A stretch of DNA of 12,935 nucleotides from Thermostichus sp. DRC_bins_24 (GCA_039794845.1 JAUQVK010000061.1:1-12935); one strand, 5' to 3'; shown: positions 10,081-12,384, counted from the first letter of the stretch. Notes: a model not told the origin generated them from the sequence alone. Made by a program: numbers and translations.

Positions 10081-11178
10081 ATGAACCCGATCCCTCTCTA
10101 TGTTGCGGTGACCGCCCACGGCTTTGGGCACACCACCCGTTTGGCGGCGGTGATCAACACGTTGCTCCAGCGGGATCCCGATATTTTGCCCATATTCGTT
10201 ACCCCGGCTCCCCGTTGGCTACTGGAGCGCTATGTGCAGGGGAAATTCCTACATCGACCGCGCCAGTTGGATGTGGGGGTGGTGCAGCCGGATGGCCTAC
10301 AGGCGGATTTGCCCGCCACCCTGAAGGCCTTACAAGCTTTCCAAACGGGATCTGCTGCCCTGATCCGAGCCGAAGCCGATTTCATTCGCACCAACCGGGT
10401 GTCCCTGGTGTTCGGAGATGTACCGCCCATCGCCACGGCCATTGCCAAGGCTGCCGGGATCCCCTGTTGGATGGCCAGCAATTTCGGGTGGGACTTCATC
10501 TACCGGGACTACGGCCCTGAGTTTCAGCCCTTTGTGGCCTGGATTGCAGAGCTCTACGGGAAGTGTGATCGCCTGTTTCGCCTACCCTTTAGCGAGGCCA
10601 TGAGCGCTTTTCCCCGTCAACAGACGGTGGGTTTAACGGGCGGGGATCCCCGGTATTCGGCGCAGGAGGTGGCCGCCCGGCTGGGGGTATCGGTGGATTG
10701 CCCGACGGCTTTGTTTACCTTCGGGGGATTGGGGCTACAGGGGTTCCCCTACGAGCGCCTACAGGATTTTCCCGACTGGCAGTTCCTCACCTTTGACCCA
10801 GCAGCCCCGAGGTTACCCAACCTGACCCGTTTGGATGGACAGGTGTGGCGACCTGTCGATGTCATGCCCCTGTGTCGTTGGGTGGTCTCCAAACCGGGCT
10901 ATGGCACGTTGGCAGAAGCGTTGCGCAGCTGTACCCCGATGGCCTGTGTCGCCCGTTCTGGGTTTGCCGAGTCGGAGCTGTTGATCGAGGGGCTACGGCG
11001 CTACGGCCAGCACCGCATTCTCTCTCCAGAAGACTTTTTTCAGGGATCCTGGTCCTTTTTAAGGGATCCCGCCCTCCCACCCCAGGCCCCTGATGAACAA
11101 CTGGATTTACAAGGGAATGAGACGATTGCGGCAGCCATTCAGAACTACCTTCGTACCGCAGGGTGGGCAGAAACGTAG
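10081..11178 (+). CDS. GT-B fold glycosyltransferase-like protein (similar to the N-terminal domain of L-arabinokinase)
   Basis: N-terminal HGFGHTTR, DVPP, SNFGWDFIY, TFGGLG and C-terminal VVSKPGYGT.AEA, R.GFAE. Starts 9 bp after the EamA stop. Confidence 0.85.
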   Translation: MNPIPLYVAVTAHGFGHTTRLAAVINTLLQRDPDILPIFVTPAPRWLLERYVQGKFLHRPRQLDVGVVQPDGLQADLPATLKALQAFQTGSAALIRAEADFIRTNRVSLVFGDVPPIATAIAKAAGIPCWMASNFGWDFIYRDYGPEFQPFVAWIAELYGKCDRLFRLPFSEAMSAFPRQQTVGLTGGDPRYSAQEVAARLGVSVDCPTALFTFGGLGLQGFPYERLQDFPDWQFLTFDPAAPRLPNLTRLDGQVWRPVDVMPLCRWVVSKPGYGTLAEALRSCTPMACVARSGFAESELLIEGLRRYGQHRILSPEDFFQGSWSFLRDPALPPQAPDEQLDLQGNETIAAAIQNYLRTAGWAET

Positions 11179-11246
11179 CTGCAAGGTTCGCCGGTGCAGA
11201 TCAACCTTTTGTCTTTTGTTTGAGTTTGTTGGCCCACAGGGTAGAC

Positions 11247-11259
11247 GTTACAGCCCTTT
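11247..11259 (+). repeat. Direct repeat copy 1, GTTACAGCCCTTT
   Basis: Exact 13-bp match to 11640-11652. Confidence 0.9.
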
Positions 11260-11373
11260 TGCCAGTCACATGTAACAACTGTGGAAGTTGAGATCCACTC
11301 TCTAGAGGGCTAGTGCTCCACACCTCGTGGAGCGAGAACAGGAATCACAATTCCTGCTGTAGAAAACCCGCGC

Positions 11374-11383
11374 AAGGGCTGTA
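11374..11383 (-). repeat. Inverted copy of the repeat core (AAGGGCTGTA on +)
   Basis: Exact reverse complement of TACAGCCCTT in both direct repeats; extends to 12 bp with one G-U pair (11374-11385). Confidence 0.85.
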
Positions 11384-11639
11384 GCGGGGGTTGAGGTAAC
11401 TCACCTAGCTCAGAATCTGTGTAGGTTGCAGGCCGTGCGCAGCAGCAGGGAATCTTTGGAGTAATCCGAAAAATCTCCATGTATAGTTTTTGATTTGCGT
11501 GGAGAGTATGTCAATGAAGATCACCGAGGAATAGCTGCGATAGGGCACATCGAAAAATCAAGCCTTTCGACACACAACTCGATACCCAGGGAGCCGAAAG
11601 GGTGGCTCTCTCGGAAACGTGGTGGAGCAGGCGCGTTCT

Positions 11640-11652
11640 GTTACAGCCCTTT
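11640..11652 (+). repeat. Direct repeat copy 2, GTTACAGCCCTTT
   Basis: Exact 13-bp match to 11247-11259, 393 bp downstream. Confidence 0.9.
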
Positions 11653-11730
11653 CGGTAAGGTTCAGCCCAGCAGCAAGAAGCAGTATGATCTCAATGAGAA
11701 GTACTTGCAATAGGAAAGGAAACCCCTCCA

Positions 11731-12384
11731 ATGGTTGCGACCCGAGTCTCTGCCCAAGAATTGTTTCGTGCCGCCTACGAAAACCGCTACACCTGGGATG
11801 CGGCATTTCCCGGCTACAGCGCTGAGGTGACCTACTGGGATGGCCAGCAAACCTTTGTCGGGCAAGTGCGGGTGGGGGCAGATTTGAAGGCTACCGTCAC
11901 CGGCGTTGCGGATGAAGAGGCCCAAAAAGCCATTCACAACCAAATCTGGGAGATCACCATCCACCGGGTACGCCGCAGCTTTGCCGACACCCATGGCCAA
12001 AACACCTTCCGTTATGGGGAGACCTTACCCGATGGGTCGGTGGAAATTCTAATGGGAGGCAAAGCGGAAGGGGATCGCTACCATGTGCGCGACAACCAAG
12101 TGACGATGGTCCACCGCCACATTCACGGGGTGGTGGTGACGATTCACACCTTTAGCAGTCACGATACCGGCTCAGGCTACCTCTCCCACCGCTACGATTC
12201 CGTTTATCATGACCCCAAAACCGGCGAGCAAAAGGGCGGGCGCAACCAGTTCGAGGATCTCTACGAAAAAGTTGGCGACTACTTTATCCTCTCGGAGCGG
12301 CGCATTCAAACCGAGACGGAAACGGGCTCCGTTGAAAAGAGGTTCACCTTCTCCAACCTGACCTTGCTTGATTCTGCGGCCTGA
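11731..12384 (+). CDS. DUF3386 family protein
   Basis: A.ELFRAAYENRYTWD..FPGY N-terminus and IHRVRRSF...HG.N.F, characteristic of DUF3386. AGGAAAGGA purine tract upstream. Confidence 0.88.
   Translation: MVATRVSAQELFRAAYENRYTWDAAFPGYSAEVTYWDGQQTFVGQVRVGADLKATVTGVADEEAQKAIHNQIWEITIHRVRRSFADTHGQNTFRYGETLPDGSVEILMGGKAEGDRYHVRDNQVTMVHRHIHGVVVTIHTFSSHDTGSGYLSHRYDSVYHDPKTGEQKGGRNQFEDLYEKVGDYFILSERRIQTETETGSVEKRFTFSNLTLLDSAA

Follow-up and report, generated by a model that had tools for sequence, protein, structure and literature searches.

The intergenic region between a 365-aa open reading frame (ORF) and a DUF3386 gene in Thermostichus sp. DRC_bins_24 is most probably (roughly 85%) an accumulation of fragments of mobile elements that belong to at least four families, to the exclusion of any reading as one element. 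By the window we mean the whole stretch of DNA analysed, 12,935 nt long; positions are counted from its first letter. A preliminary description of 11247-11652 had proposed a non-autonomous mobile element or else an undescribed large non-coding RNA. The general idea of non-autonomous mobile DNA holds, though not in the form of one bracketed element, and removing this false lead leaves neither a new large RNA nor a new kind of mobile element at 11247-11652. The two main components of the region, an IS630-type MITE and the IS200/IS605 TnpB right end of a protein-less derivative, are both of known kinds. What may be novel is the particular MITE family, which is modular, has about 180 matches here and was seen in no other genome searched.

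A sensitive BLAST search of the intergenic region against its own genome (115 contigs) gives a coverage profile with sharp edges at 11249/11261 and 11383. Between these edges 110-158 matches overlap. Both 11165-11245 and 11406-11460 are covered by about 3 matches, 11540-11566 by 3 and 11603-11630 by 2, and the remaining intergenic sequence has none; high copy number is confined to 11261-11383. Only sub-parts of the segment recur, each with its own edges and copy number. We distinguish the following features, in which E1, E3 and E4 are our names for repeats, C numbers designate contigs of this genome and G numbers other genomes.

10081-11178 (+): upstream 365-aa ORF, from an ORF scan; labelled a glycosyltransferase in the preliminary description
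11160-11250 (+): left fragment of E1, 5′-truncated; matches intact copies on C13, C41 and C101 and copies in G015 and G003
11249-11383 (+): MITE, short variant, 135 bp (TA + 131 bp + TA), with termini CAGCCCTT.../...AAGGGCTG
11384-11514 (+): right end of E1, an omega-RNA-like scaffold ending in ...GTATGTCAA; aligned with tnpB 3′ ends and protein-less copies
11515-11539 (+): unique flank directly after the right end, with no other copy in the genome; the TnpB guide position, if an RNA is made
11540-11566 (+): E4 fragment of about 27 nt, the start of a repeat of about 100 nt with inverted ends
11567-11602 (+): spacer with no match elsewhere in the genome, carrying one arm of the GGGAGCC/GGCTCTC stem; folds at shuffle level
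11603-11641 (+): E3 fragment, the first ~38 nt of a low-copy repeat of about 120 nt with inverted ends
11642-11654 (+): lone left terminus of a MITE (TA + 11 nt), with the same sequence as the short-variant end TACAGCCCTTTCG of many copies
11655-11730 (+): conserved upstream region of the DUF3386 gene; aligns up to the start codon in 11 of 11 relatives, beginning at about 11657
11731-12384 (+): DUF3386 gene, 217 aa (Pfam PF11866, E = 2.9e-94)

The TnpB-related element E1

A 417-aa ORF on C16 matches the Pfam families OrfB_IS605 (5.1e-18), Cas12f1-like_TNB (1.4e-13) and HTH_OrfB_IS605 (6.3e-10), a combination of domains that identifies it as TnpB. The right part of E1 shows homology to this tnpB gene at its 3′ end and to the sequence downstream of it, while full E1 copies share their first ~58 nt with the sequence that precedes the gene. 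As both ends match the C16 element, E1 is, judged by its sequence, derived from a TnpB insertion sequence of which it has the two ends but no protein gene: PATE-like and of the IS200/IS605 family.

Further TnpB loci or fragments were detected by tblastn on C21, C35, C25, C86, C59 and elsewhere. The 3′ ends of the loci on C16, C35, C25, C21, C59 and C86 align with 11384-11514 (alignment A1); all these TnpB right ends stop at ...GGATGTCA(A/C), with the fixed end ...GATGTCAA. For 16 right ends, RNAalifold gives a consensus of 28 pairs, 19 of which show at least one compensatory double change. The 16 sequences are related (effective number 2.67), so that counts of covarying pairs overstate their independence; in the alignment, compensatory changes are clear for the distant C21 and C59 ends. 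The consensus fold includes a GNRA-capped hairpin (11455-11470) and a long stem (11474-11505). Both had been listed in the preliminary description and lie, together with its stem at 11392-11403, within the right end of E1. A covariance model, R1, recognizes 19 such right ends in the genome, at least six of them at TnpB frames detected by tblastn; it scores the window at 92.3 bits, a value that is not independent, the window being part of the training alignment.

An RNA that covers the tnpB 3′ end together with the right end of the element is the omega (right-end) RNA, which reportedly serves as the guide of TnpB. In intact copies of E1 the right end would be transcribed as a putative omega RNA of this type.

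Uninterrupted copies of E1 are found at C13:23173-23548 and, on the minus strand, at C41:9449-9666. At the MITE site, the MITE-free copies (C13, C41, G015 and G003) run on without a break and read ...GACGTTAAAC...; in G015, which belongs to another genus of the family, the sequences that flank the MITE are 26 nt apart inside a multi-copy repeat. The window reads ...GACGTTA, followed by the MITE and then by TA and GCGGGGG. Its left MITE junction matches the GACGTTA of the uninterrupted copies, and its right junction, with a 27-nt deletion, is not that of a clean insertion. From this comparison it follows that the MITE entered at that TA and that 27 nt of E1 to the right of it are gone.

The left end of E1, common to the copies on C13, C101, C44 and C16, is also absent from the window, where similarity starts at about 11160; from the alignments, we estimate the missing part at ~115 nt. 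Neither an ORF scan nor tblastn found a tnpB gene in the window, and its copy is therefore filed as a protein-less remnant and not as an insertion sequence. Like IS200/IS605 TnpB elements, it has a right part (131 nt) that aligns with tnpB 3′-end sequences and has covarying stems and an end in common with them, and other copies of E1 retain the left end of the TnpB-bearing element. Contrary to those elements, the window copy carries neither tnpB nor a left end, is split by the MITE and is 27 nt short. Four pairs of the 5′ helix are lost as well, and the copy is probably a fossil.

It is nonetheless conceivable that transcription still reaches the 131 nt past the MITE, as read-through of the upstream gene or starting within the MITE, and that the product is processed to an orphan omega RNA that would load a TnpB encoded elsewhere (e.g. 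on C16) with a guide starting at 11515, a scenario compatible with the mosaic. The window keeps the sequence for 24 of the 28 consensus pairs, the scaffold is on the strand of the upstream gene, and C16 provides an intact TnpB gene. Moreover, a preprint describes protein-less PATE-like IS200/IS605 elements, which often encode omega RNAs necessarily used in trans (Meers et al. 2023, bioRxiv 10.1101/2023.03.14.532601). Yet the 5′ helix lacks its four pairs, and the part of the scaffold upstream of the MITE is now 135 bp away. Without its left end, the window element cannot transpose. The would-be guide has no second target either, as the 16-mer at 11515-11530 has no other site with fewer than two mismatches in the genome. 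Finally, consensus scans of 11100-11760 returned zero promoter-like sites, and zero terminators. The one RNA run from the study of the matching DNA run gave no alignment to this stretch, a result that argues neither for nor against expression. We regard such an orphan RNA as improbable.

A second copy of E1, at C101:~107550-107800 (L043), is also broken, by an inverted fragment of the same MITE family; this makes two broken copies among the handful in this genome. One may imagine that the scaffold past the MITE still yields an orphan guide RNA for a TnpB encoded elsewhere and, more broadly and in view of this second case, that the MITE, with its burst in this lineage alone, may recurrently disable the guide-RNA genes of a rival transposon family; we hold this extended idea to be quite improbable.

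The genome’s only match to a Y1 transposase (TnpA) is weak: located at C103:11473-11631 on the minus strand, in a 154-aa open frame, it reaches 21 bits alone and 34.8 bits with neighbouring matches. If real, it would be a candidate mobiliser of the TnpB and E1 elements.

A high-copy MITE with TA target sites

The preliminary description saw no terminal inverted repeats. The MITE does have them: 11246-11258 pairs with 11374-11386 over 13 nt, with 92% complementarity. In this genome its family has 182-189 BLAST core matches. We aligned 98 left and 144 right ends, which all begin TACAGCCC; nearly all aligned copies start with TACAGCCCTT and end with AAGGGCTGTA, and their left arms fall into three length classes. 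With one mismatch allowed at most, the genome contains 184 left and 197 right termini, and the lengths delimited by paired termini cluster near 100, 130 and 150-180 bp. Copies are numerous and lie mostly outside genes.

TA flanks both ends in 107 of 122 paired copies. For three copies we found precise paralogous empty sites with a single TA (72 nt, 97-100% identity): the flanks of C105:842-997 match C108 at 100% identity, those of C113:11616-11723 match C103, C77, C25 and C12 at 98.6-100%, and those of C113:569-676 match C37 at 97%. As the flanks joined via a single TA match these sites, a TA target-site duplication is demonstrated. Such a duplication is a hallmark of IS630/Tc1-mariner transposition. 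Other IS630/Tc1-mariner MITEs of bacteria are likewise small (~100-180 bp), devoid of ORFs, bounded by inverted repeats, flanked by a TA duplication and present in high copy number; unlike them, the window’s family is modular, with its three left-arm lengths and two alternative internal hairpins.

The stem at 11315-11333 belongs to one of these two hairpin modules of the core, and both it and the stem at 11339-11356, listed in the preliminary description, lie within the MITE. RNAalifold on 57 MITE cores recovered neither hairpin, because the region is modular and rich in indels. When copies were folded one by one, 30 of the 31 that could be anchored (of 57) formed a hairpin of -5 kcal/mol or lower. 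A>G at 11320 is accompanied by T>C at 11328 in contigs from other MITE copies, and these two positions form a single base pair in the hairpin; the window has GCTCCAC/GTGGAGC, and most copies of its subtype GCTCCGC/GCGGAGC. At C94:~30377-30588, two MITE copies stand head to tail with one TA between them, which fits the insertion of one copy into the flanking TA of the other.

No member of the family was found in 11 further genomes from this genus at a cut-off of E ≤ 1e-5 (one positive genome in 12). In a large collection with one genome per species, searched for exact matches only, a 21-mer of the right terminus gave no match. A degenerate 18-mer of the MITE end, searched likewise, gave 15 single matches in unrelated non-cyanobacterial taxa, by our estimate about the level of chance. 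The literature covered on MITEs in hot-spring cyanobacteria and Thermostichus has no name for this family, which is weak evidence, many subscription papers lying outside that coverage.

An IS630-family transposase would mobilise the MITE. Two fragments of DDE_3 (IS630-type) occur in the genome, at contig ends or beside a gap, an IS630-type element being broken at the ends of contigs C47 and C23. The one on C47 adjoins a terminus, TACAGCGCTTTCGCTAAT, very similar to the MITE end and different from it at a few positions; as this fragment is interrupted by an N-gap and the contig end, it is a candidate only for the autonomous partner. Fourteen pairs of MITE termini are spaced by 400-3000 bp. We read the ORFs of 12 of them, all but a 474-bp pair on C15 and the one in the window itself, and saw no transposase-like ORF; judged by eye, the enclosed frames look like ordinary genes. 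A MITE copy also sits inside an IS630 copy on C13, whose far flank is truncated. Neither an autonomous element with exactly the MITE termini nor an intact cognate transposase was found in this genome.

A repeat of this copy number could also have caused two unrelated loci to be joined in the assembly. In the one public DNA run that covers this stretch, depth summed over contigs climbs from ~17 in the flanks to 310-2853 within the MITE, and the contigs stop there, none of them spanning 11300-11356; in addition, the genes on either side are neighbours in no relative. Against such an artefact, the two sides of the MITE are consecutive parts of E1 in the same orientation, which makes a chance misjoin unlikely, and in the same run the two flanks have equal depths (16.8 and 17.3). 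Continuity across the MITE rests on the given assembly, and we take a misjoin to be very improbable.

The 13-bp direct repeat GTTACAGCCCTTT, exact at 11247-11259 and 11640-11652 as had been reported, was the basis for a single non-autonomous, possibly RNA-mediated element of about 393 bp with a 13-bp target-site duplication. In this genome, counting both strands, the 13-mer is found at 15 sites and its 11-nt core TACAGCCCTTT at 109, since it forms one end of a repeat with many copies. What had been taken for a target-site duplication is in fact two copies of the MITE terminus: the first is the inverted-repeat partner of 11374-11386, and the second, at 11642-11654, is 92% complementary to the right MITE terminus (11371-11383), again in disagreement with the reported lack of inverted repeats. 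The exactness of the repeat, its 393-bp spacing and the fact that the region is missing from relatives would suit one inserted element. However, a BLAST search of its own genome found no second copy of the 11247-11652 unit, whose sub-parts recur separately, and none of the 11 aligned relatives has a single GTTACAGCCCTTT at the site; a 393-bp element is scarcely credible.

Folding signal and downstream fragments

As a whole, the segment folds modestly better than dinucleotide-shuffled controls, with z = -2.63 on the plus strand (1 of 100 shuffles as good) and z = -2.18 on the minus strand (3 of 100), and the stems listed in the preliminary description are recovered in minimum-free-energy predictions. 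The signal is unevenly distributed. The MITE reaches z = -3.42 on the plus and -4.20 on the minus strand, folding well on both as a DNA palindrome would. The omega-like end (11384-11515) has z = -2.21 on the plus and -0.85 on the minus strand, and the 137 nt of 11516-11652 stay at shuffle level (z = -0.98 and -0.29). Selection at the RNA level on the plus strand, which had been suggested for the segment, is retained for 11384-11514 and not for the rest. The impression arose because 11384-11515 beats its shuffles on the plus strand only, and the GNRA hairpins work on this strand because 11384-11514 is an omega-RNA scaffold. The last two stems of the preliminary description, GGGAGCC/GGCTCTC among them, are chance juxtapositions of fragments within 11515-11654.

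The segment was correctly described as free of credible ORFs, its longest having at most 82 aa, and of known RNA signatures. Rfam gave no match at gathering score over the whole window, and none of its 4227 models matched the window at E ≤ 1; relaxing the threshold to E ≤ 10 over 11100-11800 yields three chance-level matches (E = 2.4-8.6), all far under gathering. Intact copies of E1 match tRNAs and, below gathering, Plastid-psbl-rps4 twice, the latter on tRNA genes (30.2 and 22.5 bits, gathering score 68), and no other family; full copies of E3 match none. HEARO, the IscB omega RNA, is an example of a transposon-associated RNA in Rfam. Families of this sort are likewise multi-copy, structured and transposon-linked, but the window and the intact copies of E1 have no match to their models.

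An undescribed large structured RNA gene across the segment could appeal to the plus-strand score of the whole, to the GNRA-capped stems and to this silence of Rfam. It is hardly tenable, given that the fold signal is that of a strand-symmetric MITE and an omega-like end with 137 other nt at shuffle level, that homology to the right ends of a TnpB family in the same genome explains the structured part, and that the unit is conserved in none of the 30 relatives searched.

Past the unique flank of E1, the window contains the start of E4 and the start of E3, separated by the unmatched spacer. Full copies of E4 (C86:43993, C11:6667, C72:8883, C43:1683 and C73:28090) continue for about 100 nt, which the window copy does not. 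Their inverted ends read GGGCACATCGA...TCGAAGTGCCC; on C43 and C73, E4 adjoins copies of the high-copy MITE or is interrupted by them. The E3 fragment matches G004 twice (92% and 87%) and C101, C48, C12 and C43 of its own genome, with flanks that differ upstream of the common start. Full copies, at C48:~20990-21219, on C12, C43 and C101, and at L024:~1501-1625 in G004, start with GGCTCTCCYGG, end with CAGGAGAGCC and are intergenic in two species of the genus; E3 may be either a small MITE or a family of small RNA genes.

Flanking genes and a proposed order of events

The upstream ORF, which matches no Pfam family at E ≤ 0.001, has orthologues of 365 and 367 aa in G004 and G008, with a different sequence of the last ~7 residues and different downstream neighbours. 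In the window, similarity to the repeat starts at 11156-11165, so the final codons and the stop of this ORF lie in E1-derived sequence. On the other side, similarity upstream of the DUF3386 gene begins only at about 11657 in all 11 aligned relatives. The differing neighbours and the E1-derived gene end lead us to read the region as a lineage-specific breakpoint filled with mobile-element debris.

From the boundaries of the pieces, we infer the following order of events. A PATE-like, TnpB-less element, E1, would have landed or been truncated beside the upstream gene; deprived of its left end, it supplies the last codons and the stop of that gene, and its right 131 nt encode a TnpB guide (omega) RNA scaffold on the plus strand. 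A TA-targeting MITE of ~135 bp and IS630/Tc1-mariner type would then have inserted into E1 at a TA, with the loss of the adjacent 27 nt. Finally, other small repeats and a second MITE would have inserted and been mostly deleted. The leftover of the second MITE would be the 13-nt solitary terminus that sits 393 bp downstream of the first one and borders the conserved sequence preceding the DUF3386 gene. All these fragments are presumably inert now.

For annotation, the mosaic provides a high-copy, apparently lineage-specific family of TA-targeting MITEs that fragments the assemblies of this organism; a set of related TnpB right ends (omega-RNA scaffolds), protein-less copies included; and a rearrangement breakpoint at which repeat DNA gives a gene its stop codon and adjoins the conserved upstream region of the DUF3386 gene. 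Such pile-ups help to date transposon bursts and to account for synteny having been lost between genomes of hot-spring cyanobacteria.

In none of the relatives G001-G011 do the upstream ORF and the DUF3386 gene lie side by side, as they do here; in G004 they are ~300 kb apart. Downstream of the upstream ORF there is another ORF in G004 and, as seen by eye, a tRNA-gene-like sequence in G008.
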